This document shows positions 8,329-48,975 of a stretch of 64,000 nucleotides of DNA, one piece after another. The first letter of the stretch is position 1. Every line of letters starts with the position of its first letter. The notes beneath the pieces are model-generated. The model worked only from the letters and a program-made list of their open reading frames with translations, ran no database searches and was not told the origin of the DNA. The position numbers and the translations under genes were made by a program. Source of the stretch: Candidatus Oxydemutatoraceae bacterium. GTDB taxonomy: Bacteria; Pseudomonadota; Gammaproteobacteria; Poriferisulfidales; Oxydemutatoraceae. The stretch spans positions 1,712,397 through 1,776,396 of the forward strand of contig OZ245010.1 in the NCBI GenBank assembly GCA_965223735.1. The letters are read 5' to 3'.

Positions 8329-9066
8329 TCAGTCGGTTTCTGCGACCATCAATTCGCGCGCTTTTTCTGCAAGTTGTTTGCGGTCGCCGTCGCCGGGCAG
8401 GCTGTCGGTGTAGCGCACGACGGCGTGTATGCACGGCTCGCCGAGCACCGCGAGGGCATGGGTGAAGAACGGCACGTCGCTGGTGTAGGGCGCTTTCTCG
8501 TGAACGCCGTCGTGTGCGCTGTTGCACGGGTAAGTGATGACCATCGGCTGCACCCACGCATGGGTGTCGATCGCGGCCATGAACAGGCGGGGGTGAAAGC
8601 GCTGTATTTCGGTGCCGTCCGAAGTCGTGCCTTCGGGAAAGAACGCGACGCTGGCGCCGACGCGCAGGCGTTCGCTGATCAACTGCGCCGCGGTTTCCGC
8701 GCCGGCGCCGCGGTCTATGAACAAGGTGCCGGCTTTGCGCGCGAGATAACCGATGATCGGCCAGCGCGCGACCTCGGCTTTCGACAGAAAACTCACCGGT
8801 TGCAGGCTGCCGACGATCACGATGTCCATCCACGAGATATGGTTGGCGACGACCAGCGACGCGCCTTCGGCGGGTTTGCCGTGAATATGCAGGCGGATGC
8901 CGACCAGTCGCGTGCAGGTGCGCAGCCACCAGCACACGATGCCGCGTTGCCGGGCGTTGCCCGCTTTATGTCCGTCGGGCGTCAGCGCGAAGATGCACAG
9001 CAGTATGCCGATGACGACGTGGATGCCGATCAGCGGGAGACGGATTGCAATGCGCAGGACGCTCAT
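8329..9066 (-). CDS. 1-acyl-sn-glycerol-3-phosphate acyltransferase family (PlsC/LPLAT)
   Basis: NHISWMDI (HX4D acyltransferase motif) and FPEGTTS motif. N-terminal TM segment. Confidence 0.75.
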   Translation of the reverse strand: MSVLRIAIRLPLIGIHVVIGILLCIFALTPDGHKAGNARQRGIVCWWLRTCTRLVGIRLHIHGKPAEGASLVVANHISWMDIVIVGSLQPVSFLSKAEVARWPIIGYLARKAGTLFIDRGAGAETAAQLISERLRVGASVAFFPEGTTSDGTEIQRFHPRLFMAAIDTHAWVQPMVITYPCNSAHDGVHEKAPYTSDVPFFTHALAVLGEPCIHAVVRYTDSLPGDGDRKQLAEKARELMVAETD

Positions 9067-9541
9067 GCGGGATCGGCCGTGTCGGGTCGCAACCCGTCCG
9101 GCGCCGGGTGAATGTCAACCAGTCGCGTGCAGGTGCGCAGCCACCAGCGCACGATGCCGCGCTGCCGCGTGCTGCCCGTTCTATGTCTGTCGGGTGTCAG
9201 CGCGAAGATGCACAGCAGTATGCCGACGACGACGTGGATGCCGATCAGCGGGAGACGGACGGCGATGCGCAGGGCGCTCATGCGGGATCGGTCGGGGTGG
9301 ATCGGAACCCGTCCGGCGCTGGGTGGAGATCGATCAGCCGCGTGCAGGTGCGCAGCCACCAGTGCACGATGCCGCGCTGCCGCGTGCTGCCCGTTCTATG
9401 TCTGTCGGGCGTCAGCGCGAAGATGCACAGCAGTATGCCGATGACGACGTGGATGCCGATCAGCGGGAGACGGATTGCAATGCGCAGGACGCTCATGCGG
9501 GATCGGCCGTGTCGGGTCGCAACCCGTCCGGCGCCGGGTGG
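8896..9541. repeat. Three tandem ~215-bp copies of the acyltransferase 5' end (about 45 codons) plus its upstream region
   Basis: Copies end at about 9110, 9326 and 9541 with a few substitutions. This produces the pseudo-ORFs 9063..9359(-) and 9278..9496(-), which repeat [18 protein letters not shown]. Confidence 0.8.
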
Positions 9542-21200: not shown

Positions 21201-21388
21201 CTTCGTGCCAAGCGGCACTTTCGCCGATGGATATTCTTCGGGGTAGGGTTTTTATCCTCCACCGCACGTTGAAAAATTCGGCATCCCAAGTCAATTAGGC
21301 CGGTTGGTTTGTCATGCTTATCCGCCTCAAGCAATGCCCATCCTATGGAATTGCTGCCGAGATCAAGCCCTAACACCTTCTTGCTCAT
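18280..21388 (-). CDS. cas9: Cas9 (type II-C), with the reading frame interrupted near 18566-18572
   Basis: RuvC-I MSKKVLGLDLGSNSIGWAL at the N-terminus, HNH motif NTEIDHILPLSRSLDDSYMNKV and RuvC-III HRHHAIDAVV. The 942-aa frame stops at 18563. The last ~100 aa (GKDYEFVMALHINDLVSI..., alignable to the NmeCas9 PAM-interacting domain) continue in another frame as the 18280..18675 ORF. No csn2 or cas4, hence II-C. Confidence 0.85.
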
Positions 21389-21416
21389 AGATGCATTCTC
21401 GTATATACTGGCCAGT

Positions 21417-21527
21417 AGTATAACTGACCAAGGCCTATCGATTAGCTTTTCATACCAATGAAATATCTTTTTCGTAGGCAACGCTTTTAAGCGACCAAGA
21501 GCCCTCCCAGCGGGGGCTCTTTTAATA
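21417..21527 (+). ncRNA. Candidate tracrRNA: a 23-nt anti-repeat plus downstream hairpins and terminator. Strand assignment is uncertain.
   Basis: 21417-21439 (AGTATAACTGACCAAGGCCTATC) is the exact reverse complement of repeat positions 14-36. It lies 28 nt upstream of the cas9 ATG. On the plus strand it is followed by hairpins (TTTCAT-ACCA-ATGAAA, CGCTT-TT-AAGCG) and an intrinsic terminator at 21497-21527. Confidence 0.45.
21497..21527 (+). terminator. Rho-independent terminator (8-bp stem followed by TTTT)
   Basis: aagagccc-tcccagcg-gggctctt followed by tt. Confidence 0.5.
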
Positions 21528-22467: not shown

Positions 22468-23595
22468 TCAGTATAAGTGCGGTTTGTGTCTGTCCTTCGG
22501 CGGAAAAATCACTTTCAACTTATTCAGCGGCGTATTGCGGGGCAGATGTTTTTGGTGTTGCAAACATCCCACAACGACGCCCGGGTGGATATTCAATTCT
22601 TTTGCGAATTTGCGGATCGCATGCGCGGACTTTGAGGCTTGTTTGAGTTGTTCCGAGTACTGCTTCGGGATCAGCGTGTTGATCGCAAATTGGCTGGCTT
22701 CTTTTTCGAGTCTGTTTTCATCCGGCATTATTTTGTCGTCCCAGAATGCCATCCGTCGGCTTTGGTGCAGCAGAATGTGGCCGGCTTCGTGAAAGAAAGT
22801 CAGCCAGAACTGATCGTTGGTCTTGCCATATAGCGGCAGTTGGATCAGTGGCCGGTTGGGTCTCAGCCAGCGCGCGATGCTGCTGACGTGCGCTTTCCTG
22901 AAAGCAGGCGTAATCGCCAGATGCACACCTGCGTCGAAGCACAGTTTCTCTATCCCGTGCTCAATCTCCTGTGGTTTTTCGACGGTCAGGTTCCGGATCC
23001 TTGCAATCGCCTTACGGAATTTTACTTTGCCATATTTCGCCGGGGTGCCTTGTTCCTCGGCTTCTATCTCACCCGTGCGCAGCAAAGCTGAAACCGCCCC
23101 CATGTCCTGCCGGCGTTTTTTCGTCAGCGAGAGCATCCTTTCTGTCTCTTCAAAACAGCTTTTCCATTGTTTCGGGGAAGCCACGCCGTAGAATTTCAGC
23201 GCTTCCCGGACAATGCGCGGTTTGTTCCCGGCCGTCTGCCTGGATTTTTCAATGTACCCGTTGTTCATTAACTCCCTGATCGGTATTTGTCTGAGCCACC
23301 TCACCCATTTACGGTATTTTTTGTCTTGCTTCAGGCGTAGCAGTTCAGCGCGGTAATGTGCTTCGCGGGTAAGCCAGAATTTCGCGGAGGGGCCTCCCAA
23401 CACTTGCTCAAGCACCGCAGCCGTTCCTTCAGTGATAGGCGCTTTGCCGTTGAAGAGAAGGCTTACGTGCTTTTCAGACCATCCGGTTCTTTTTGAAAAA
23501 TCAGTCTGTTTCCATCCCCGAGACCTGATAATGTCCTTGATGGTATCTCCCGCAGGAGATACCCGGTCGGGCTCAAATGTATTTAAATCAGACAT
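22468..23595 (-). CDS. HigA-like XRE-family HTH regulator fused to an ImmA/IrrE (M78, COG2856) zinc-metallopeptidase domain
   Basis: N-terminal HTH (GWKQTDFSKRTGWSEKHVSLLFNGKAPIT) and C-terminal HEAGH zinc-binding motif (FFHEAGHILLH). Overlaps the stop of the upstream toxin-like ORF by 8 nt. Confidence 0.7.
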   Translation of the reverse strand: MSDLNTFEPDRVSPAGDTIKDIIRSRGWKQTDFSKRTGWSEKHVSLLFNGKAPITEGTAAVLEQVLGGPSAKFWLTREAHYRAELLRLKQDKKYRKWVRWLRQIPIRELMNNGYIEKSRQTAGNKPRIVREALKFYGVASPKQWKSCFEETERMLSLTKKRRQDMGAVSALLRTGEIEAEEQGTPAKYGKVKFRKAIARIRNLTVEKPQEIEHGIEKLCFDAGVHLAITPAFRKAHVSSIARWLRPNRPLIQLPLYGKTNDQFWLTFFHEAGHILLHQSRRMAFWDDKIMPDENRLEKEASQFAINTLIPKQYSEQLKQASKSAHAIRKFAKELNIHPGVVVGCLQHQKHLPRNTPLNKLKVIFPPKDRHKPHLY

Positions 23596-23848
23596 GGTAG
23601 TCGCTTATTGACACGATCATTATTTTGGTAATTTTTTTCCAGTCGATATTGCCATCAGATAATTTTGGCGGGTCATGGTGATCATGGGTAAATACCAACC
23701 GTATTCCTCCGCTTATGCTGACCGCCCATTTGTTTTTCAATCGTCCATGCAACAAGTGAGGTTGTCTGTGAGGATTCTCTTTAGAGAAAACAGCCGCATT
23801 TTCCGCCGCTTTCGAGTCGCTGAGCACTGCGGGCGGGTTATTCGCCAC
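23588..23848 (-). CDS. HigB-like toxin (RelE/ParE superfamily, killer-protein family). N-terminal half poorly conserved. GTG start.
   Basis: LLHGRLKNKWAVSISGGIRLVFTHD..ISDYH aligns to the HigB consensus L.GDRKGQ[YW]SIRIN.QWRI.F.....VDYH. The toxin-then-antitoxin order is typical of higBA. Confidence 0.5.
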   Translation of the reverse strand: MANNPPAVLSDSKAAENAAVFSKENPHRQPHLLHGRLKNKWAVSISGGIRLVFTHDHHDPPKLSDGNIDWKKITKIMIVSISDYHV

Positions 23849-24035
23849 TTTCTTGTTGAGCAGGTGTTGTGCTTGTCTTTTTTCCTCACAGGTTCTTTTG
23901 CTTCGAGTTCCTGAATGAGATGGCTGTTTGTTAATATTTACCTATATGGTAAACTTTTTCAAGAGAATAGGTCAACTGATGATCCAGCCCCCGGCACGTC
24001 GGCAACCCGTGTTGATCCGATGAGCCGGTCATCAC

Positions 24036-24151
24036 CGCCCACACCCCACGCTGAACCGCCGTTTCCATTCCGGGTCGCGGCGGCGAGGCGGTTCAAATCA
24101 CGGGTGCAGGCCGTCCGGTTGCGTCCCCGGCTCGCGTTCATGCTTCAGGTC
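24036..24151 (-). pseudogene. Degenerate duplicate of the apaH 3' end (about 40 codons, with W->stop and an internal ~110-bp deletion)
   Basis: Minus-strand translation DLKHEREPGTQPDGLHP*FEPPRRRDP..RRFSVGCG matches ApaH DLGHKREPGTQPDGLHPWFEPPHRRDP...RRFSVRCGE encoded at 28140-28380. Nucleotide identity is clear over two blocks. Confidence 0.55.
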
Positions 24152-24244
24152 TATAATGAATGTTGATCGGATCAAATCGCCCAACGATCCGTTAAATAGA
24201 CTCGTTGCTATCTTGACAGGAAGTGATATTGATATGGAAAAACC

Positions 24245-26326
24245 ATGAGACAGAATGCTTTGAATCACTTGCGGATCGCACTTGGTGATCCTCAAGCGGA
24301 GTTCAGGGATGGGCAATGGGAAAGTATTTCGCAGCTTTTAGATCGTAGAAGGGTGCTTGTCGTCCAGCGTACCGGTTGGGGGAAAAGCATGGTTTATTTT
24401 TTGGCGACAAAGCTTATTCGAGAGTCGGGTTCAGGGCCAACCTTATTAATTTCTCCGCTATTATCATTAATGCGCAATCAGATTGAGGCTGCCGCGCGAA
24501 TTGGCATTACACCCAGGAAGATAGACAGTACCAATACCGGCGAATGGGATCAGATCAGGCAGGAGTTGACCGCTGATCAGGTAGATATATTGCTGATTTC
24601 TCCCGAACGCCTTGCAAATGCTTCCTTTCGCCGGCAAGTTTTCCCTGTTATTGCAGAAAACATCGGGCTTTTTGTGATTGACGAGGTTCACTGTATCTCA
24701 GACTGGGGGCATGATTTCAGACCGGATTACAAGCGTATCGTTCGTGTCCTTCAAGCTATTCCTTCCAATGTTCCGGTGCTGGCAACAACGGCAACAGCCA
24801 ATGACAGGGTTGTGGATGATGTCAAGTCGCAACTCGGGGATGACATTGAATTGGCCAGAGGTTCTTTAGTCAGAGAAAGCCTCAAACTTCAGAATATAAA
24901 TATGCCCAGTCCCGCAGCAAGAATGGCTTGGCTGGCACAGACTATTCCAAATCTTCCGGGCAGTGGAATAATCTATACTCTGACTCAGCGCGATGCAGAA
25001 CGACTCACTGAATGGCTTCAGCGCAACAGAATTCGTGCGGAAGCCTATCATGCCGACATCTCAAACCGCGAAGTGTTGGAACAGCGGTTGCTTGATAATG
25101 AAGTAAAAGTTCTGGTTGCCACCGTTGCTTTGGGGATGGGATTTGACAAGCCTGACTTGGGGTTTGTAATTCATTTTCAAAGGCCTGCTTCCGTCGTTCA
25201 TTACTATCAACAGGTTGGTCGTGCCGGTCGTGCTGTTAAAGAGGCGTATGGCATTCTGCTTTGTGGCGAGGAGGACGATCACATTGCAGATTACTTCATA
25301 CGCAGTGCCTTTCCACCTCAGCAGCATATTACCGCCATCCTTGAAACGCTTGATAAGGCGGATGATGGCCTGCCACCATCATCAATGCAAAATTTTTTAA
25401 ATATCAGCGGGTCACAAATTAAAAAAACGATCAAATATCTGACCATAGAATCCCCTTCTCCGATTGTAAAAGACGGTTCTAAATGGTATGCGACAGCTTC
25501 GGCGGCTGACTATGCAATTGATCAGGGGTATATAGAGGCAATTACCCGGATCCGGAGACAGGAACAGCGTCAGATGCAGGAATATATGGAACACAGAGGA
25601 TGCCTGATGGCATTCCTCCAAAATGCGCTCGATGACCCCAACTCACAGGGCTGCGGTAAATGCCGGAATTGTAACCCCGGACTTCTGCTTTCTGAACAGT
25701 ACAGCGATGAATTGGCAAACCAGGCGGCACTCTTTCTTAAAAGAGGCTGTCAACCAATCAAGCCTCGCAAGCAATGGCCCGCAGAGAATATGTTCAAACA
25801 TTATCCACTTGGAGGAAGGTGGATTCCACCAAAATTTCGAGCCTCTAAAGGTCGTGCCCTGAGTCTGTGGCGTGATGCCGGTTGGGGGCAACTCGTTGCC
25901 AAAGGGAAATATGAAACTGGAAGTTTTGCAGATGAGCTTGTAACCGCGTGTGTCGAGATGATTGCAGCATGGGATCCCAGACCGCCCCCCGAATGGTTGA
26001 CCTGCATACCTTCACTTGATCATCCTGAGTTAGTTCCGGATTTTGCACGGCGTTTAGCGGGTGGCCTGAAGCTGCCGTTTATTCCCTGTGTTCGGAAAGC
26101 AAGGCAGAATGATCAACAGAAAACCAGGGAAAACAGCTTTCAGAAAGCACGAAATTTGGATGGTGTTTTTGAAATCAACCTTGAACGGAATGATCCGTGC
26201 CTGTTGATCGACGACGTGGTTGACTCGGGGTGGACTTTTACCGTTGTATCCGCTTTGTTGCGTCAGGCGGGTTGCACGGCGGTTCGTCCTCTGGCATTGG
26301 CGCTTAATTCTCCAAGGATGAATTGA
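24245..26326 (+). CDS. RecQ-family SF2 DNA helicase with a RecQ-type Zn-binding motif, C-terminally fused to a ComF/GntX-type phosphoribosyltransferase (PRTase) domain
   Basis: Motif I RTGWGKS, motif II DEVHCISDWGHDFRPDY (RecQ DEAH box), III ATTATA, VI QQVGRAGR. Cys cluster CLMAF..GCGKCRNCNP like the RecQ zinc finger. C-terminal type-I PRTase signature NDPCLLIDDVVDSGWTF. GC about 47%. Confidence 0.8.
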   Translation: MRQNALNHLRIALGDPQAEFRDGQWESISQLLDRRRVLVVQRTGWGKSMVYFLATKLIRESGSGPTLLISPLLSLMRNQIEAAARIGITPRKIDSTNTGEWDQIRQELTADQVDILLISPERLANASFRRQVFPVIAENIGLFVIDEVHCISDWGHDFRPDYKRIVRVLQAIPSNVPVLATTATANDRVVDDVKSQLGDDIELARGSLVRESLKLQNINMPSPAARMAWLAQTIPNLPGSGIIYTLTQRDAERLTEWLQRNRIRAEAYHADISNREVLEQRLLDNEVKVLVATVALGMGFDKPDLGFVIHFQRPASVVHYYQQVGRAGRAVKEAYGILLCGEEDDHIADYFIRSAFPPQQHITAILETLDKADDGLPPSSMQNFLNISGSQIKKTIKYLTIESPSPIVKDGSKWYATASAADYAIDQGYIEAITRIRRQEQRQMQEYMEHRGCLMAFLQNALDDPNSQGCGKCRNCNPGLLLSEQYSDELANQAALFLKRGCQPIKPRKQWPAENMFKHYPLGGRWIPPKFRASKGRALSLWRDAGWGQLVAKGKYETGSFADELVTACVEMIAAWDPRPPPEWLTCIPSLDHPELVPDFARRLAGGLKLPFIPCVRKARQNDQQKTRENSFQKARNLDGVFEINLERNDPCLLIDDVVDSGWTFTVVSALLRQAGCTAVRPLALALNSPRMN

Positions 26327-26329
26327 TAA

Positions 26330-28135
26330 ATGAACAATCTTTTAACAGACGATACGAAATCGATAATGCTGCTCTGTGGCGTGCTTGGAAAAGCGCGCTC
26401 CATAAAACCACTCACGCAATCAGAATACAACAGGGTAGCCCGCTGGCTGATCGGTGAGAAAATGCGGCCGGCGGATCTGCTCCGATATGAAAATGTAGAT
26501 TTGGCGGCAATAAATTCCGGGATCGAGCTGCAACGATTGAAATCCCTGCTCGGAAGAGGCGTTCAGCTTGGGTTTGCTGTAGAGGAATGGCAACAGAACG
26601 GCATTTGGGTTTTGAGCCGAAGCGACCGGGATTATCCGGCACGGTATAAAAAGCATCTGAAGAATGAAGCACCTCCGCTTCTTTTCGGAGTAGGCGACAG
26701 GTCTCTTTTGCAGGGTGGTGGAGTTGCAATTGTCGGTTCGCGGAATGTGGACGGTGACGGAGAGGATTTTGCCCGTAAAGTGGCTGAGCTATGCGCTTAC
26801 AACAGAATGCCGGTTGTTTCAGGGGGGGCTCGCGGGGTTGACCAGATTGCCATGACCGCCGCACTTGATGCGGGAGGTGTGGTAATAGGCGTTCTTGCTG
26901 AAAATCTTCTGAGGAGAAGTCTTGAACGCAATGCACGCAGGGCAATCTCTGATGACCAGTTGCTTTTAATATCTCCTTACCGCCCGGATGCCCGCTTTAC
27001 AGTCGGGACGGCAATGGGGCGAAATAAGTTGATCTATGCCATGGCTGATTACGGCCTGGTCGTGAGTGCTGAGTATAAAAAAGGCGGCACCTGGGCCGGG
27101 GCGGTGGAAGAGCTGAAACGGGAAAATCCTCTACCGGTTTTTGTGAGATCGGGCGCAAATGTTCCTGTCGGCAACACAGAGTTGCTGTGTTCAGGTGCTC
27201 TGGAGTATCAGGAAGTGAAATATCGGGAAGAGCTGGGTCAACACCTCGCTGATCTTGCCAAGATTGTAAAAGGTCAAGAACAAGCACAGATCGACAGATC
27301 AGGGAAAGATGAAAAACAGGGAGTTCTTCCTATTGGTCCAACGATGGACAGTTCCGCGGTGGCGCCGGGACCCGGCATTTACGAGACTGTATTACCGGTG
27401 ATCATTGATCATCTGGGATCCCCAACCGCCTCCGGTGAATTATCGAAAACCCTGGACGTGTCGAAAGCACAGCTGTATCGCTGGCTCAGAAAGGCTGTGG
27501 ATGAAGGACGGATCCAAAAACTACTAAGTCCTGTGAGATATCAGGTAATAGAGGCGGAACCGGAAACCATTTACGAAGCCGTATTGCCGGTGATCATTGC
27601 TCATCTGGGATCATCAACTGCGGTCGATGAATTATCGAAAGCTCTGGACGTGTCGAAAGCACAACTGAATCACTGGCTCAAAAAAGCCGTGGATGAAGAA
27701 AGGATCCGAAAGCTATCGCAGCCCGTAAGGTATCAGGCAATGGAAGCGGCGCAGACAACCATTTGCGAAGCCGTCTCGCCGGTGATCATCAGTCATCAAA
27801 CTATTTACGAAGCTGTATTGCCGATGATCATTGCTCATCTGGGATCCCCAACTGCACCCGGTGAATTATCGAAAACGCTGGACGTGTCGAAGGTACAGTT
27901 GAACAGCTGGCTCAAAAAGGCCGTGGATGAAGGACGGATCCAAAAGTTATCGCAGCCCGTAAGGTATCAGGCAATGGCAGCGGAGCCGACAACCATTTAC
28001 GAAGCCGTATTGCCGGTGATCATTGCTCATCTGGGATCATCAACTGCGGTCGATGAATTATCGAAAACTCTGGACGTGTTGAAGGTACAGTTGAACAGTT
28101 GGCTCAAAAAAGCCGTGAATGAAGGAAGGATCTGA
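26330..28135 (+). CDS. DprA/Smf (SLOG-fold) domain protein with four C-terminal ~63-aa tandem winged-helix-like repeats
   Basis: DprA Rossmann core VAIVGSRNVDG..VVSGGARGVDQIAMTAALDAGGVVIGVLAENL. The C-terminus carries 4 repeats of IYEAVLPVIIAHLGS.TA..ELSKTLDVSK.QLN.WLKKAVDEGRIQKLSQPVRYQA. Starts 4 nt after the helicase-PRTase stop. Confidence 0.75.
   Translation: MNNLLTDDTKSIMLLCGVLGKARSIKPLTQSEYNRVARWLIGEKMRPADLLRYENVDLAAINSGIELQRLKSLLGRGVQLGFAVEEWQQNGIWVLSRSDRDYPARYKKHLKNEAPPLLFGVGDRSLLQGGGVAIVGSRNVDGDGEDFARKVAELCAYNRMPVVSGGARGVDQIAMTAALDAGGVVIGVLAENLLRRSLERNARRAISDDQLLLISPYRPDARFTVGTAMGRNKLIYAMADYGLVVSAEYKKGGTWAGAVEELKRENPLPVFVRSGANVPVGNTELLCSGALEYQEVKYREELGQHLADLAKIVKGQEQAQIDRSGKDEKQGVLPIGPTMDSSAVAPGPGIYETVLPVIIDHLGSPTASGELSKTLDVSKAQLYRWLRKAVDEGRIQKLLSPVRYQVIEAEPETIYEAVLPVIIAHLGSSTAVDELSKALDVSKAQLNHWLKKAVDEERIRKLSQPVRYQAMEAAQTTICEAVSPVIISHQTIYEAVLPMIIAHLGSPTAPGELSKTLDVSKVQLNSWLKKAVDEGRIQKLSQPVRYQAMAAEPTTIYEAVLPVIIAHLGSSTAVDELSKTLDVLKVQLNSWLKKAVNEGRI
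27371..28135 (+). repeat. In-frame tandem DNA repeat, about 4.2 copies of about 189 bp, encoding the C-terminal repeats of the DprA-like gene
   Basis: Units begin ATTTACGAAGCCGTATTGCCGGTGATCATTGCTCATCTGGGATC at 27571, 27803 and 27991, with a diverged first unit at 27371 and a partial 42-bp unit at 27761. Confidence 0.85.
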
Positions 28136-28139
28136 TCCT

Positions 28140-28955
28140 TTACTCCCCACACCTCACGCTGAACCGCCGTTCCTGTCCCGGGTCGAGGCGGAACGCGGTC
28201 AGGCTGCCGCCCCACACGCAACCGGTGTCGAGGCCGAGAACCCCATCGCGGCGGATGAAACCGAGCGCCGACCAGTGGCCGAAGATCACCGTGTAGGCCG
28301 GGTCGCGGCGGTGGGGCGGTTCAAACCACGGGTGCAGGCCGTCCGGTTGCGTCCCCGGTTCGCGTTTATGTCCCAGGTCGATGCGTCCGTCGGCGCTGCA
28401 GAAGCGTAGCCGGGTCATCACATTGATGATCACGCGCGCACGGTCGTCGCCGTTTAAATTGTCGTCCCAGTATTCGGGTGTGTTGCCGTAGATGTTCTTG
28501 AGGAACGTCCGGTAGTCGTCCGCACGCAGTCGCGTTTCAACTTCTCCGGCAAGTGCCTGCGCGGTGTTGATGTCCCATCCGGGTATCAGGCCCGCGTGCA
28601 CCATCGCGAGGCGGCGTTCATGGTCCACGATGAACAGCGGGTGTCGTCTCAGCCACTCGATCAGTTCGCGGCGGTCGGGGCTTTGCAGCACCGCGTCGAG
28701 TGTGCCGTCGGCCGGCGGGTGTTCGCAGCCGGCGTCGGTTCTCAGCAGATGGAAGTCGTGATTGCCGAGCACGCACCGCACGCACGCGCCGAGGCTTTTC
28801 AGGAAGCGCAGGCTTTCGAGCGAATCGCTGCCGCGGCTGACGAGATCACCGGTCAGCCAGAGTTCGTCGTGCGCCGGGTCAAACTCGATCTCGTCGAGCA
28901 GTTGTTTCAGCGGGTTGAGGCAGCCTTGCAGATCGCCGATCGCGTAGAGTGACAT
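28140..28955 (-). CDS. apaH: Bis(5'-nucleosyl)-tetraphosphatase, symmetrical
   Basis: MSLYAIGDLQGC..LTGDLVSRG..GNHD metallophosphatase motifs. apaG-apaH synteny. Confidence 0.85.
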   Translation of the reverse strand: MSLYAIGDLQGCLNPLKQLLDEIEFDPAHDELWLTGDLVSRGSDSLESLRFLKSLGACVRCVLGNHDFHLLRTDAGCEHPPADGTLDAVLQSPDRRELIEWLRRHPLFIVDHERRLAMVHAGLIPGWDINTAQALAGEVETRLRADDYRTFLKNIYGNTPEYWDDNLNGDDRARVIINVMTRLRFCSADGRIDLGHKREPGTQPDGLHPWFEPPHRRDPAYTVIFGHWSALGFIRRDGVLGLDTGCVWGGSLTAFRLDPGQERRFSVRCGE

Positions 28956-28989
28956 CTCTTCAGTGCGACGTCACATCAGGGCGGTGCGT

Positions 28990-29367
28990 TCAGTGAAGCA
29001 CGCGCGGTGCGGCGAGCATGAATTCCTGTATTTCGGCGTCAAATTCCTTGCCGTCTTCGGCGAGCATCTGGTAACTGCCGCGCATGGTGCCGATCGGCGT
29101 GTCGATCAGGGTGCCGCTGGTATAGCGGAAGGCTTCACCCGGGCGCAGGAACGGCTTTTCCCCGACCACGCCTTCGCCGCGCACTTCCTGCACCTTCTCG
29201 TTGGAATCGGTGATCACCCAGTGCCGTGACAGCAGTTGTGCCGCGACGCAGCCGTGGTTGGTGATCGTGATCGTATAGGCGAATACGTAACGTTCGTTGT
29301 CTGCATCGGACTGATCTTCCAGGTAGTGCGTTTGCACGTCCACGTCGATGTCATAGCGGTTTTTCAT
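28990..29367 (-). CDS. apaG: ApaG (DUF525) protein
   Basis: 125 aa, alignable to E. coli ApaG (DNERYVFAYT.TI.N....QLL.R.W.IT). Start chosen at MKNRYD. Confidence 0.85.
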   Translation of the reverse strand: MKNRYDIDVDVQTHYLEDQSDADNERYVFAYTITITNHGCVAAQLLSRHWVITDSNEKVQEVRGEGVVGEKPFLRPGEAFRYTSGTLIDTPIGTMRGSYQMLAEDGKEFDAEIQEFMLAAPRVLH

Positions 29368-30187
29368 AGTGGTTGCCTCGCTTTCCTGATGCTGTTTGCT
29401 TGCCGTCAATCAAGTTTAACATGCCGAGGAAATCATCTACCCCCAGCGTTTCGGGGCGGGCGGCGGCGGACAGATTGAGCCGTGCGAAATCGGTGTCGTC
29501 GAGGGTGCCCGAGAAGATCCGCCCGATGGTTTTGCGCCGTTGCGAGAACGCACGTCCGACAAGGTTGAGGAACGCCCGCCGGCGTTGCGGGTCGAACGGG
29601 CACGGGCGCGGCAGCAGCCTGACCAGTGAGGAACTGACTTGTGGTGGCGGCGAGAACGCGCTGGGGGCGACGTCAAACAGATGGCGGACTTCCACGAAAC
29701 ACGCCGCGGTCACGCTCAGCCGCGAGTAATTGCGCGTGCCGGGTTGCGCGGCGAGGCGTTCAGCAACTTCGGTCTGTAACATCAGGTGCATGTCGCGGAT
29801 GTGTTCGCAGGTGTTGAACAAATGCATCAGCAACGGCGTCGAAACGTTATAGGGCAGGTTGCCGATGACTCTGATCTTGCGGTCCGTGTGCAGCGCTGCG
29901 AAGTCAAAGTCGAGCGCGTCGCGGCAGTGCAGCGTGAAGGCTTTGTTTTCGGCAAAGCGTTGCGTCAGCCGGTCGGCGAGCGCGTGGTCGATTTCAACGG
30001 TGTCGAGGTGGGCGCAGCGTTCAAGCACCGGCGCGGTCAACGCGCCGAGGCCGGGGCCGATTTCGACGATCGCCTCGTCCGGGGCCGGCGAGATCGCCTC
30101 AACCACGCGCGCGACGGTCTGTGTGTCGGTGAGGAAATGCTGGCCGAAGTGTTTTTTAGCCGGGGTGTTCATCGCCTTGAGGCTCAT
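29351..30187 (-). CDS. rsmA: 16S rRNA (adenine1518-N6/adenine1519-N6)-dimethyltransferase
   Basis: FGQHFL...[17 protein letters not shown], KsgA family. pdxA-ksgA-apaG-apaH order. Start is uncertain (30187 or 30172). Confidence 0.85.
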   Translation of the reverse strand: MSLKAMNTPAKKHFGQHFLTDTQTVARVVEAISPAPDEAIVEIGPGLGALTAPVLERCAHLDTVEIDHALADRLTQRFAENKAFTLHCRDALDFDFAALHTDRKIRVIGNLPYNVSTPLLMHLFNTCEHIRDMHLMLQTEVAERLAAQPGTRNYSRLSVTAACFVEVRHLFDVAPSAFSPPPQVSSSLVRLLPRPCPFDPQRRRAFLNLVGRAFSQRRKTIGRIFSGTLDDTDFARLNLSAAARPETLGVDDFLGMLNLIDGKQTASGKRGNHYEKPL

Positions 30188-30770
30188 CGTTCGGGGGCCT
30201 GTTTTATCCGGCTTGCTCACTGGCGGTTCTCAGTGCTCATCGTTCGGGGATTCGTTGTTTCAACGGTGTCGAGGCGGCACCGCGTTCGAGCACCGGCGCG
30301 GTCAACGCGCCGAGGCCGGGGCCGATTTCGACGATCGCCTCGTCCGGGGCCGGCGAGATCGCCTCAACCACGCGCGCGACGGTCTGTGTGTCGGTGAGGA
30401 AATGCTGGCCGAGGTGCTTTTTAGCCGGGGTGTTCATCGCCTTGAGGCTCATCGTCCGGGGGCCTGTTTTATCCGGCTTGTTCACTGGCGGTTCTCAGTG
30501 CTCATCGTTCGGGGATTCGTTGTTTCAATGGTGTCGAGGCGGCACCGCGTTCGAGCACCGGTGCGGTCAATGCGCCGAGGCCGGGGCCGATTTCGACGAT
30601 CGCCTCGTTCGGGGCCGACGAGATCGCCTCAACCACGCGCGCGACGGTCTGTGTGTCGGTGAGGAAATGCTGGCCGAGGTGCTTTTTAGCCGGGGTGTTC
30701 ATCGCCTTGAGGCTCATCGTTCGCGTGTTTGTTTTGCCTGCCTGCTCACCGGCGCCCCTCAATGTTGATC
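29995..30770. repeat. Three tandem ~265-bp copies of the ksgA 5' end (about 60 codons) plus its upstream leader
   Basis: Copies start at about 29995, 30260 and 30525. The pseudo-ORFs 30237..30485(-) and 30502..30762(-) repeat [23 protein letters not shown]...[17 protein letters not shown]. Confidence 0.8.
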
Positions 30771-31865: not shown

Positions 31866-32345
31866 TGCAGCAACGGTGTTCCAGCAACCAGGCGGGTGTT
31901 CAAAAGACAGGCGAGGTCATGCGGTTTCCGGGATGACCACGCGGCGCGGGAATGACCCGCAGCGGAACTTGCGGAGGGACCAGTGAGCAGCGGTGTTCCA
32001 GCAGCCAGGCGGGTGTTCAAAAGACAGGCGGGGTCATGCGCTTTCCGGGATGGCCACGCGGCGCGGGAATGACCCGCAGCGGAACTTGCGGAGGGGTCAG
32101 TGAGCAACGGTGTTCCAGCAACCAGGCGGGTGTTCAAAAGACAGGCGGGATCGTGCGCTTTCCGGGATGGCCACGCAGCGCGGGAATGACCCGCAGCGGA
32201 ACTTGCGGAGGGGCCAGTGAGCAGCGGTGTTCCAGCAGCCAGGCGGGTGTTCAAAAGACAGGCGGGATCGTGCGCTTTCCGGGATGGCCACGCGGCGCGG
32301 GAATGACCCGCAGCGGAACTTGCGGAGGGGTCAGTGGGTGGCGGC
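31866..32345. repeat. Intergenic tandem repeat, 4 x ~120 bp, between pdxA and surA
   Basis: The unit gcaacggtgttccagcaaccaggcgggtgttcaaaagacaggcgXggtcatgcgXtttccgggatgXccacgcggcgcgggaatgacccgcagcggaacttgcggagggXXcagtgagca occurs four times. Each unit contains a hairpin CCGCA-GCGGAACT-TGCGG. Confidence 0.8.
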
Positions 32346-48331: not shown

Positions 48332-48865
48332 ATGAACGTGAGTCTTGACCCGTTCCGTCCCATCGGTGAACTGCTTGAAAGCGGCGGGCCGGTGCTCGGG
48401 ATACTTCTCGTGATGACGTTCGTCATGTGGCTTCTGATCATTGAACGCTACTGGTACTTGTCGTTCCAGCAGCGGTTTTTCGCTGACGAGTTCGCCTCGC
48501 GCTGGCGGGCGCGCAGCGACCGGCGTTCACGCGCCGCCCGCATGATCCGTTCGTGCTGGCTTTCGCAGTTTCGCTGCCATCTTGAACAACGCATTGCCCT
48601 GATCAGGATGCTGGTCGGTATCAGCCTGCTGCTCGGCCTGCTCGGTACGGTAACCGGCATGGTCGGCGTATTTGAAGGACTGTCGGTATTCGGTGTCGGG
48701 GGTTCCGGCGGTATCCGGGCGGTCGCCGACGGCATTGCCGGCGCGGTCTTCCCCGCGATGGCCGGGATGGTTGCTGCGCTGTCGGGTGTGTATTTCTCTG
48801 CGCAGCTCAAAAAGCGCGTCGCGCACGCGGTGCGGGTATTGCGCGTGTGTCTGGCGCTGGAGTGA
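48332..48865 (+). CDS. exbB: ExbB/TolQ family protein
   Basis: 177 aa, three TM helices, LLGLLGTVTGMVGVF motif. Confidence 0.75.
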   Translation: MNVSLDPFRPIGELLESGGPVLGILLVMTFVMWLLIIERYWYLSFQQRFFADEFASRWRARSDRRSRAARMIRSCWLSQFRCHLEQRIALIRMLVGISLLLGLLGTVTGMVGVFEGLSVFGVGGSGGIRAVADGIAGAVFPAMAGMVAALSGVYFSAQLKKRVAHAVRVLRVCLALE

Positions 48866-48975
48866 GGGGCGATGATCAGAAGACATGGCGACCATGCTGA
48901 AAGCGCGTCGCGCACGCGGTGCGGGTATTGCGCGTGCGCCTGGCGCTGGGGTAAGGGGCGATGATCAGAAGACGC
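48811..48975. repeat. Tandem duplication, 2 x ~85 bp, spanning the exbB 3' end and exbD start
   Basis: aaagcgcgtcgcgcacgcggtgcgggtattgcgcgtg[t/c]g[t/c]ctggcgctgg[a/g]gt[g/a]aggggcgatgatcagaagac occurs twice (48811-48894 and 48893-48975). Confidence 0.7.

Follow-up and report, generated by a model that had tools for sequence, protein, structure and literature searches.

The closest described relatives of the gene pair considered here are the PsyrTA systems, also named RqlHI, in which a RecQ-like helicase fused to a phosphoribosyltransferase (PRTase) is the toxin and a DprA-like protein is the antitoxin. The pair lies at 24245–28135 of a 64,000-nucleotide (nt) stretch of DNA from a Candidatus Oxydemutatoraceae bacterium (contig OZ245010.1, positions 1,712,397 to 1,776,396), and this whole stretch is called the window. 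PsyrTA of P. syringae was reportedly identified as a toxin–antitoxin pair by Sberro in 2013. The architecture of the toxin, a RecQ-like ATPase followed by a Cys4 zinc module and a ComF-like PRTase, was published in 2012 as RqlH (PMC3378886). M. smegmatis RqlH, a 3′–5′ helicase of 691 amino acids (aa), has its ATPase at 1–346, a tetracysteine zinc domain at 435–499, no HRDC domain, and a ComF-like PRTase as its C-terminal domain (PMC3378886); it shares the layout of PsyrT, but was studied there as a stand-alone repair-type helicase, with a partner or a defence role outside the scope of that work. RqlH and RqlI, the equivalents of PsyrT and PsyrA, were published as a toxin–antitoxin pair in 2015 (PMC4670107). 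RqlH of E. coli F11 is genotoxic through its PRTase domain, and either deletion of residues 509–690 or the D663A mutation abolishes the toxicity (PMC4670107). RqlI, a protein of 400 aa encoded downstream of rqlH, has a DprA-like region and a C-terminal helix–turn–helix (HTH). It neutralises RqlH, with which it co-immunoprecipitates only if the PRTase domain is present, and its HTH is dispensable for neutralisation (PMC4670107). Unrestrained PsyrT in the relatives leads to DNA damage, SOS induction, and filamentation. In 2022, PsyrTA was listed beside ShosTA among two-gene toxin–antitoxin systems with which phage resistance is conferred, and transformation with a psyrA deletion did not succeed (Millman 2022, bioRxiv 10.1101/2022.05.11.491447).

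ShosTA, a system of the E. coli P2/P4 hotspots (PMC9122126, PMC11961720, PMC12961424), resembles PsyrTA in having a PRTase toxin, a DprA-like antitoxin, and an abortive-infection outcome. Its toxicity requires the binding of phosphoribosyl pyrophosphate (PRPP), its antitoxin binds single-stranded DNA (ssDNA) and RecA, and it is triggered by T7 Gp0.7 through antitoxin instability (PMC11961720, PMC12961424). However, ShosT lacks a helicase, unlike PsyrT, and neutralisation by ShosA involves no binding of the toxin, in contrast to RqlI, which is co-precipitated with RqlH. With about 300–330 positions, the profiles for ShosA are also shorter than PsyrA. An earlier note on this DNA had named a P2/P4 system of a DprA-like protein and a PRTase as a possible relative. 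That system exists and is ShosTA, a helicase-less relative, while the locus itself is PsyrTA.

How does the locus compare with these systems? The two open reading frames (ORFs) proposed in the earlier note are present at exactly the positions it gave:

24245–26326, forward strand: psyrT (rqlH), toxin, RecQ-like helicase–PRTase fusion, 693 aa (PADLOC PsyrT, full length)
26330–28135, forward strand: psyrA (rqlI), antitoxin, DprA-like protein ending in an array of winged helices, 601 aa (PADLOC PsyrA)

The genes are co-directional, in the toxin-upstream, antitoxin-downstream order of PsyrTA/RqlHI. The TGA stop of psyrT (26324–26326) is followed by a TAA and then by the psyrA ATG at 26330, so that the spacer is 3 nt. 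The PADLOC profile for PsyrT (PDLC03928) matches gene 1 with E = 3.7e-285 and 945.6 bits, aligning residues 3–689 with positions 6–685 of 689, and the profile for PsyrA (PDLC03927) matches gene 2 with E = 1.8e-147 and 489.6 bits, aligning aa 1–406 with positions 1–396 of 398 in 4 stretches. The runner-up for gene 2, ShosA, is distant (E = 4.1e-26, 90 bits), a difference of about 400 bits in favour of PsyrA; identity with ShosTA was rejected on this ground and because gene 1 has a full RecQ-like helicase. The likeness to PsyrTA/RqlHI extends to the proteins. PsyrT has 693 aa against about 690, with an identical ATPase–Cys4–PRTase domain order, and PsyrA shares with the known antitoxins its N-terminal region, a Rossmann domain of the DprA type, the linker, and an HTH at the C-terminus. 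At 601 aa, however, PsyrA is longer than the usual 400–460 or so, because its C-terminal winged helix is present in three full copies, a truncated copy, and a 14-aa fragment. This array is the sole unusual trait of the pair, as most relatives have one winged helix or none.

Judged by its sequence, the locus is a clear member of the described PsyrTA (RqlHI) toxin–antitoxin and anti-phage family. The earlier note took the pair to be a candidate for an undescribed two-gene module; this was mistaken, because the architecture had been published as RqlH in 2012, as a toxin–antitoxin pair in 2013–2015, and as an anti-phage system in 2022. The PADLOC search that the note had suggested returned the known system, and the note was right in broad terms to see a conflict module centred on nucleotides within a defence island. 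We regard it as very probable that the locus is a PsyrTA toxin–antitoxin and abortive-infection module, gained as a discrete cassette of about 4 kb at the 3′ end of apaH within a folA–apaH defence island.

The toxin has three recognisable parts:

24296–25282, forward strand: RecQ-like superfamily 2 ATPase core, aa 18–346 (Pfam DEAD and Helicase_C, RecQ cores in the PDB, motifs)
25535–25675, forward strand: tetracysteine RecQ-type zinc-binding module, aa 431–477 (sub-threshold Pfam RecQ_Zn_bind plus Cys4 motif)
25757–26323, forward strand: ComF-like PRTase domain, aa ~505–693 (PRPP loop, family alignment and profile; the toxic part in E. coli RqlH)

The helicase motifs are intact, with Walker A (motif I) GWGKS at 44–48, motif II DEVH at 146–149, and motif VI QQVGRAGR at 322–329. 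Pfam finds DEAD (1.6e-26) and Helicase_C (2.1e-14), aa 5–344 match the RecQ, BLM, and RECQ1 cores in the PDB with E from 1e-46 to 1e-51, and the NCBIfam recQ_fam subfamily model scores 251 bits, above its cut-off of 219.8. A bona fide RecQ ortholog was rejected, with 287.8 bits for TIGR01389 against a cut-off of 640.2 and 208.6 for NF008279 against 1015. The RecQ match stops near residue 361, and no HRDC family is among the Pfam matches to gene 1 at E ≤ 0.1. The Dpd helicase DpdF was also rejected, because its scores are far below that of PsyrT and below the NCBIfam cut-off (NF041063, 147.6 bits against 550; secondary PADLOC DpdF models, ≤293.7 bits against 945.6 for PsyrT); there are no dpd genes in the island. 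The cysteines are arranged as C453-x16-C470-x2-C473-x2-C476, and RecQ_Zn_bind scores 24.3 bits, marginally under the cut-off of 25. The zinc motif of E. coli RecQ has the same C-x16-C-x2-C-x2-C spacing. The RecQ core with DEVH box, QQVGRAGR, and zinc finger read in the earlier note is thus found here, the zinc finger at a slightly sub-threshold Pfam score.

The C-terminal part of PsyrT carries the type I PRTase PRPP loop LLIDDVVDSGWT at residues 653–664. The Pfam model Pribosyltran by itself scores 21.7 bits, under its cut-off of 26.3. However, in an alignment of the C-terminal ~200 residues of 32 homologs from many phyla, the loop residues D656, D657, S661, and W663 and the loop leucine are invariant, D656 and D657 corresponding to the acidic pair on which toxicity depends in E. 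coli. In a search of the PDB, the profile made from this alignment matches PRPP synthetase, PurF, and HGPRT at their PRPP loops, with E from 3e-5 to 0.1. Because this profile matches solved PRTases and the L-DD-S-W columns are invariant, we retain the assignment as a ComF-like type I PRTase, in agreement with the earlier note. No solved structure of PsyrT or PsyrA was returned by the PDB search, only RecQ cores, DprA, and ShosA.

The antitoxin begins with a DprA-like core, followed by a linker:

26579–27199, forward strand: DprA/SLOG Rossmann domain of PsyrA, aa 84–290 (Pfam DNA_processg_A, PDB, Foldseek)
27215–27376, forward strand: PsyrA linker, poorly conserved and predicted mostly disordered, aa ~296–349 (AlphaFold2, family consensus)

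The DprA/SLOG assignment made in the earlier note is confirmed by Pfam (DNA_processg_A, 5.1e-36; SLOG cluster4, 8.6e-08), which also gives numerous weak HTH matches at residues 358–560, and a GGARGVD motif is found at 165–171. In the PDB, PsyrA matches DprA chains at 1e-7 to 1e-10 and ShosA (9vzo) at 1.4e-4, and the top Foldseek matches to the PsyrA model are DprA 3maj and 3uqz. Like canonical DprA/Smf (3maj, 3uqz, 4ljk), the protein has an N-terminal helical domain, a Rossmann/SLOG domain, and a C-terminal winged helix. It differs in being below the equivalog cut-offs (TIGR00732, 87.5 bits against 191.15; NF008007, 65.3 against 495), on which canonical DprA identity was rejected, and in being paired with a toxin, located on a mobile island, and equipped with several winged helices. 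These differences bear on whether the pair could be a competence or DNA-uptake module akin to ComFA/ComFC/DprA that processes incoming ssDNA. The combination of a helicase, a ComF-like PRTase, and a DprA-like protein does parallel the competence proteins, a parallel drawn both in the earlier note and in PMC4670107. However, the best match of gene 2 is PsyrA, its scores are far under those for DprA, no competence genes are nearby, and there was no transformation phenotype in E. coli (PMC4670107). A competence function is therefore extremely unlikely.

The public protein for gene 2 (P0001, 589 aa) begins at 26366 and so lacks the first 12 residues of the ORF that opens with the ATG at 26330. The longer N-terminus, MxxxLTxDTKAIxLLCGV, is kept in homologs, and the longer ORF is favoured because of this conservation. 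Thus, the ATG at 26330 is probably the real start, and the public call would be too late. In the linker, the predicted local distance difference test (pLDDT) of the AlphaFold2 model falls below 50 at residues 296–303 and 312–348, a helix is predicted at 302–321, and the family consensus is undefined across the stretch. In two homologs (P0028 and P0113), the linker that leads from the DprA domain to a single winged helix itself contains tandem repeats, with units of ~20 aa that are coiled-coil-like or acidic, so the part of PsyrA that follows the DprA domain tends to form repeats of more than one kind.

The cassette is bounded on both sides by apaH sequence:

24032–24154, reverse strand: decayed copy of the apaH 3′ end (apaH′ remnant), left cassette boundary (direct repeat with 28146–28382, 87–89% identity)
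28140–28955, reverse strand: intact apaH, 271 aa, right cassette boundary (its 3′ end, 28140–28382, pairs with the left remnant; Metallophos domain)

The backbone around the island has a guanine plus cytosine (GC) content of 0.60–0.65 and the gene order surA-pdxA-rsmA-apaG-apaH. Between folA (15846–16349) and apaH lies an island of GC 0.38–0.51 that contains a CRISPR array, cas2, cas1, cas9, a cupin gene, an HTH–M78 gene with an 86-aa partner ORF, and psyrTA, much as the earlier note had described a low-GC island with CRISPR-Cas. The psyrTA cassette itself has a GC of 0.49–0.51, compared with about 0.62 for the backbone, while the apaH′ remnant is host-like at 0.667. Relative to intact apaH, the remnant has a 120-nt internal deletion and an in-frame stop, and it retains its own terminal stop. 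On the right, the stop of psyrA is 4 nt from that of apaH. Two independent short-read contigs match the window with 100% identity over both junctions, at 24101–27594 and 27991–30053; one (L001) supports the apaH′–psyrT junction, and the other (L083), in which apaG is upstream of apaH, supports the junction of apaH with the last winged-helix unit, R4. With apaH′ on the left and intact apaH on the right, the ~4-kb cassette is bracketed by direct repeats of the 3′ end of its target gene, and we infer that it is the scar of a separate psyrTA insertion at a folA–apaH hotspot. This insertion probably also cost psyrA its original end. Borders as clear as these, from the decayed apaH 3′ fragment to intact apaH, are unusual, and they suggest that psyrTA moves as a minimal two-gene unit into the folA–apaH defence hotspot.

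PsyrTA is very widespread. A single scan of species-representative genomes, the host's not among them, gave at least 594 full-length relatives of PsyrT across many phyla, the best being 78% identical, and at least 8000 are present in a large protein database; nearly all of its 120 top-ranking ones are close to 700 aa long and align over practically the whole query. Of 80 loci that were retrieved, 72 have a PsyrA homolog immediately after PsyrT. Helicase–PRTase fusions with a DprA-like gene downstream are thus common, which answers the neighbourhood question raised in the earlier note. Full-length PsyrT was found in 12 plasmid records and in no phage record. One plasmid, the E. coli IncF plasmid NZ_OX030731.1 (L082, 37352–40869), encodes a pair of 710 and 462 aa that PADLOC scores as PsyrT and PsyrA and that is 50% and 34% identical to the respective proteins of the window. 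On this conjugative plasmid, psyrT–psyrA is nested in a type I restriction–modification operon, between hsdM–hsdS and hsdR.

The distribution and the setting of the pair also bear on a housekeeping role, in which RqlH would be a DNA-repair or recombination helicase that replaces RecQ, as proposed for mycobacteria, and the DprA-like partner would be a recombination mediator. The first study of RqlH did describe it as a helicase of the RecQ-like repair type, in a species that has no RecQ (PMC3378886), the DprA-like cousin ShosA binds RecA and ssDNA, and cooperative action of RqlH and RqlI on DNA was put forward as a possibility by Russell and Mulvey. However, the pair lies on a low-GC insertion flanked by repeats of the target gene and adjoining CRISPR-Cas, and the closest homologs, ≤78% identical, are scattered over unrelated phyla and plasmids. 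Furthermore, toxicity resides in the PRTase domain in E. coli, where the pair acts as toxin and antitoxin (PMC4670107). We consider a housekeeping role highly improbable, and PsyrTA as a mobile toxin–antitoxin and abortive-infection module remains our reading of the locus.

The C-terminal half of PsyrA consists of the winged-helix array:

27377–27568, forward strand: winged-helix unit R1, aa 350–413 (AlphaFold2, three helices plus a β-hairpin, pLDDT 81–87)
27569–27760, forward strand: winged-helix unit R2, aa 414–477 (72% protein and 79% DNA identity to R1)
27761–27802, forward strand: 14-aa fragment of the start of a unit, ICEAVSPVIISHQT, aa 478–491 (Tandem Repeats Finder row of period 42, alignment)
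27803–27994, forward strand: winged-helix unit R3, aa 492–555 (DNA identity 87% to R2 and 82% to R1)
27995–28135, forward strand: truncated unit R4, aa 556–601, 46 aa, without the wing, plus the stop codon (helices only in AlphaFold2, pLDDT 44–55)

The repeats noticed in the earlier note are therefore real and are winged helices. The count of four near-identical units of ~63 aa has to be revised, since there are three complete units of 64 aa each, the 14-aa fragment, and R4, of which 46 aa remain before the stop codon. R1 is the most diverged copy of the array and corresponds to the single winged helix–turn–helix (wHTH) of an ordinary PsyrA, as it aligns with the end of the PsyrA profile and with the wHTH of PsyrA from the E. 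coli plasmid. In the AlphaFold2 model, obtained from a 42-sequence alignment, R1, R2, and R3 are each formed of three helices and a β-hairpin, as expected for a winged helix, with pLDDT of 63–87. Foldseek also returns proteins with tandem winged helices, namely SelB WH1–4, Pol III RPC34/62, UFL1, and ScpB. The C-terminal half of the model is structurally closest to SelB WH1–4, RPC34/RPC62, and ScpB, with their consecutive winged helices, but there is no sequence kinship and their biology is unrelated, so the likeness is one of architecture only.

Are the copies recent? The pairwise identities of the repeats are 72–87% for protein and 79–91% for DNA, with 81–87% matches in Tandem Repeats Finder. 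The synonymous divergence (dS) between copies is 0.17–0.60, and the ratio of nonsynonymous to synonymous divergence (dN/dS) is 0.21–0.41 by the Nei–Gojobori method. A recent expansion, as proposed in the earlier note, is not supported by dS values of this size. With dS up to 0.60 and dN/dS in this range, the copies are old and held by purifying selection.

Among the best 120 PsyrA homologs, almost all are 400–450 aa with one C-terminal winged helix, the long exceptions being the two proteins with linker repeats. The 68 complete PsyrA genes adjoining PsyrT in other species encode 299–491 aa (median 418), and none of the 68 has an internal C-terminal repeat. However, a query with one unit against 1.84 billion representative proteins returned proteins of ~480–650 aa with 2–3 copies, a PsyrA-like N-terminus, and a DprA domain, and the four multi-copy proteins that were scanned (P0126, P0146, P0151, and P0197) are PsyrA by PADLOC, with E from 1e-131 to 1e-151. 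An array unique to this locus was therefore rejected. Because PsyrA proteins with 2–3 copies exist in the protein library while none of the 68 PsyrT-adjoining genes is repeated, the multiplication of the winged helix in PsyrA is rare yet recurrent, and the copy number in the window is the highest encountered. Two other proteins in which several stretches match the repeat unit (P0261 and P0215) are unrelated HTH-repeat proteins and not PsyrA. A protein of 5412 aa in the representative library (P0124) has 23 stretches that match the winged-helix unit.

Several observations weigh against an intact, protective PsyrTA module with the array as described. The function of the pair at this locus is predicted from its sequence, and in a study in the native host, E. 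coli PsyrTA had no protective activity on the phage panel used (bioRxiv 10.1101/2024.12.20.629700), so the breadth of PsyrTA defence is uncertain. The model of PsyrA is only moderately confident, with a mean pLDDT of 62.8. The number of repeats is read from one long contig, because both short-read contigs end inside the array, where short-read assemblies break. Finally, the last repeat, R4, is truncated at the apaH junction, which leaves the antitoxin without its original C-terminus.

The truncation of R4 could mean that the cassette is a decaying remnant that no longer works, with the shortened PsyrA and its array as by-products of a duplication-prone genome; the neighbouring cas9 also looks frameshifted, and the 64-kb window contains at least 5 other long tandem or segmental duplications. 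However, both ORFs are uninterrupted and every catalytic motif is intact, and dN/dS of 0.2–0.4 at dS up to 0.6 indicates that the copies were kept by selection. Furthermore, the results in PMC4670107 imply that an intact toxin without a working antitoxin should be lethal, and the E. coli HTH can be dispensed with in neutralisation (PMC4670107). A decayed cassette is thus very doubtful, and we prefer a functional PsyrTA module.

The mechanism that we propose for this module follows that of the relatives. psyrT and psyrA would be translationally coupled, and PsyrA would bind PsyrT through the PRTase domain, as shown for the relatives, and silence it in uninfected cells. Phage infection may then free the PRTase activity, either by loss of the antitoxin or when phage DNA intermediates are met by the helicase or DprA domains. 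The freed PRTase would disturb nucleotide and DNA metabolism and so halt phage replication at the expense of the cell. What is the function of the array? The C-terminal winged helix of PsyrA may be an accessory nucleic-acid-binding or regulatory module. Since purifying selection has kept these old copies, our best guess, which is speculation, is that multiplied copies raise the avidity or valency for DNA, either an operator or a target.

As a system, the locus adds little, because PsyrTA/RqlHI is already in PADLOC and DefenseFinder-type tools and is so widespread. The array is of more interest, as naturally multiplied copies under selection suggest that the winged helix of the antitoxin has a dosage- or valency-sensitive function and provide a natural series for testing it. 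One may go further and suppose that wHTH copy number is a recurrent, independently evolving, selected trait of PsyrTA, with the array as a tunable-valency nucleic-acid sensor, or as an operator-binding module, on which the threshold or specificity of toxin release would depend. The 2–3-copy PsyrA proteins in unrelated lineages and the age and purifying selection of the copies here speak for this idea, which we put forward as a tentative and rather unlikely one. If it is true, the three full units and the truncated one make this locus the most extreme example encountered.

The remaining features of the region are the sequence upstream of psyrT and the genes of the CRISPR-Cas9 locus:

24155–24244, forward strand: psyrT upstream region, 90 nt, presumed promoter and operator (function inferred only, from reading the sequence)
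17059–17391, strand not stated: cas2, CRISPR-Cas9 locus
17388–18287, strand not stated: cas1, CRISPR-Cas9 locus
18563–21481, strand not stated: cas9, 972 aa, CRISPR-Cas9 locus

The upstream region contains the small palindromes TTGATC-G-GATCAA and AACG-ATC-CGTT and a tandem TGATAT TGATAT. A scan with promoter and terminator consensus sequences gave sites no more frequent than in shuffled controls, and a single tRNA, outside the psyrTA locus, is all that Rfam found in the window. The CRISPR-Cas9 locus (16448–21481) begins with an array of nine 36-nt repeats with ~30-nt spacers at 16448–17024. An ORF of 131 aa at 18280–18675, in another frame, overlaps the 3′ end of cas9, pointing to either a frameshift or an error of assembly. 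A candidate for the tracrRNA is marked by an anti-repeat at 21413–21439, 96% complementary to the CRISPR repeat. Between this locus and psyrTA, at 22468–23848, is the gene for a 375-aa protein with an HTH and an M78 (ImmA/IrrE-type) peptidase, which matches PADLOC PD-Lambda-2_B at 1.4e-29 and RmrA weakly; the 86-aa ORF that overlaps it has no family match. The earlier note had placed a toxin–antitoxin pair beside psyrTA, and this gene with its small partner ORF is that putative pair.

The genome seems unusually prone to tandem duplication, a background relevant to the psyrA array. A tandem segmental duplication of ~2.09 kb at 12908–16400, 99% identical over the 300 nt compared, carries thyA and folA, giving the pairs 12943–13755/13752–14255 and 15037–15849/15846–16349. 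A tandem array at 29992–30720 (period 265 nt, 2.7 copies, 96%) covers the 5′ end of rsmA/ksgA and yields repeated N-terminal ORF fragments at 30237–30485 and 30502–30762, upstream of the full gene at 29351–30220. Between pdxA and surA, at 31869–32336, is an array of 117 nt × 4 (95%), and further arrays are found at 8903–9540 (215 nt × 3, 90%) and 48811–48973 (89 nt × 1.8, 94%).

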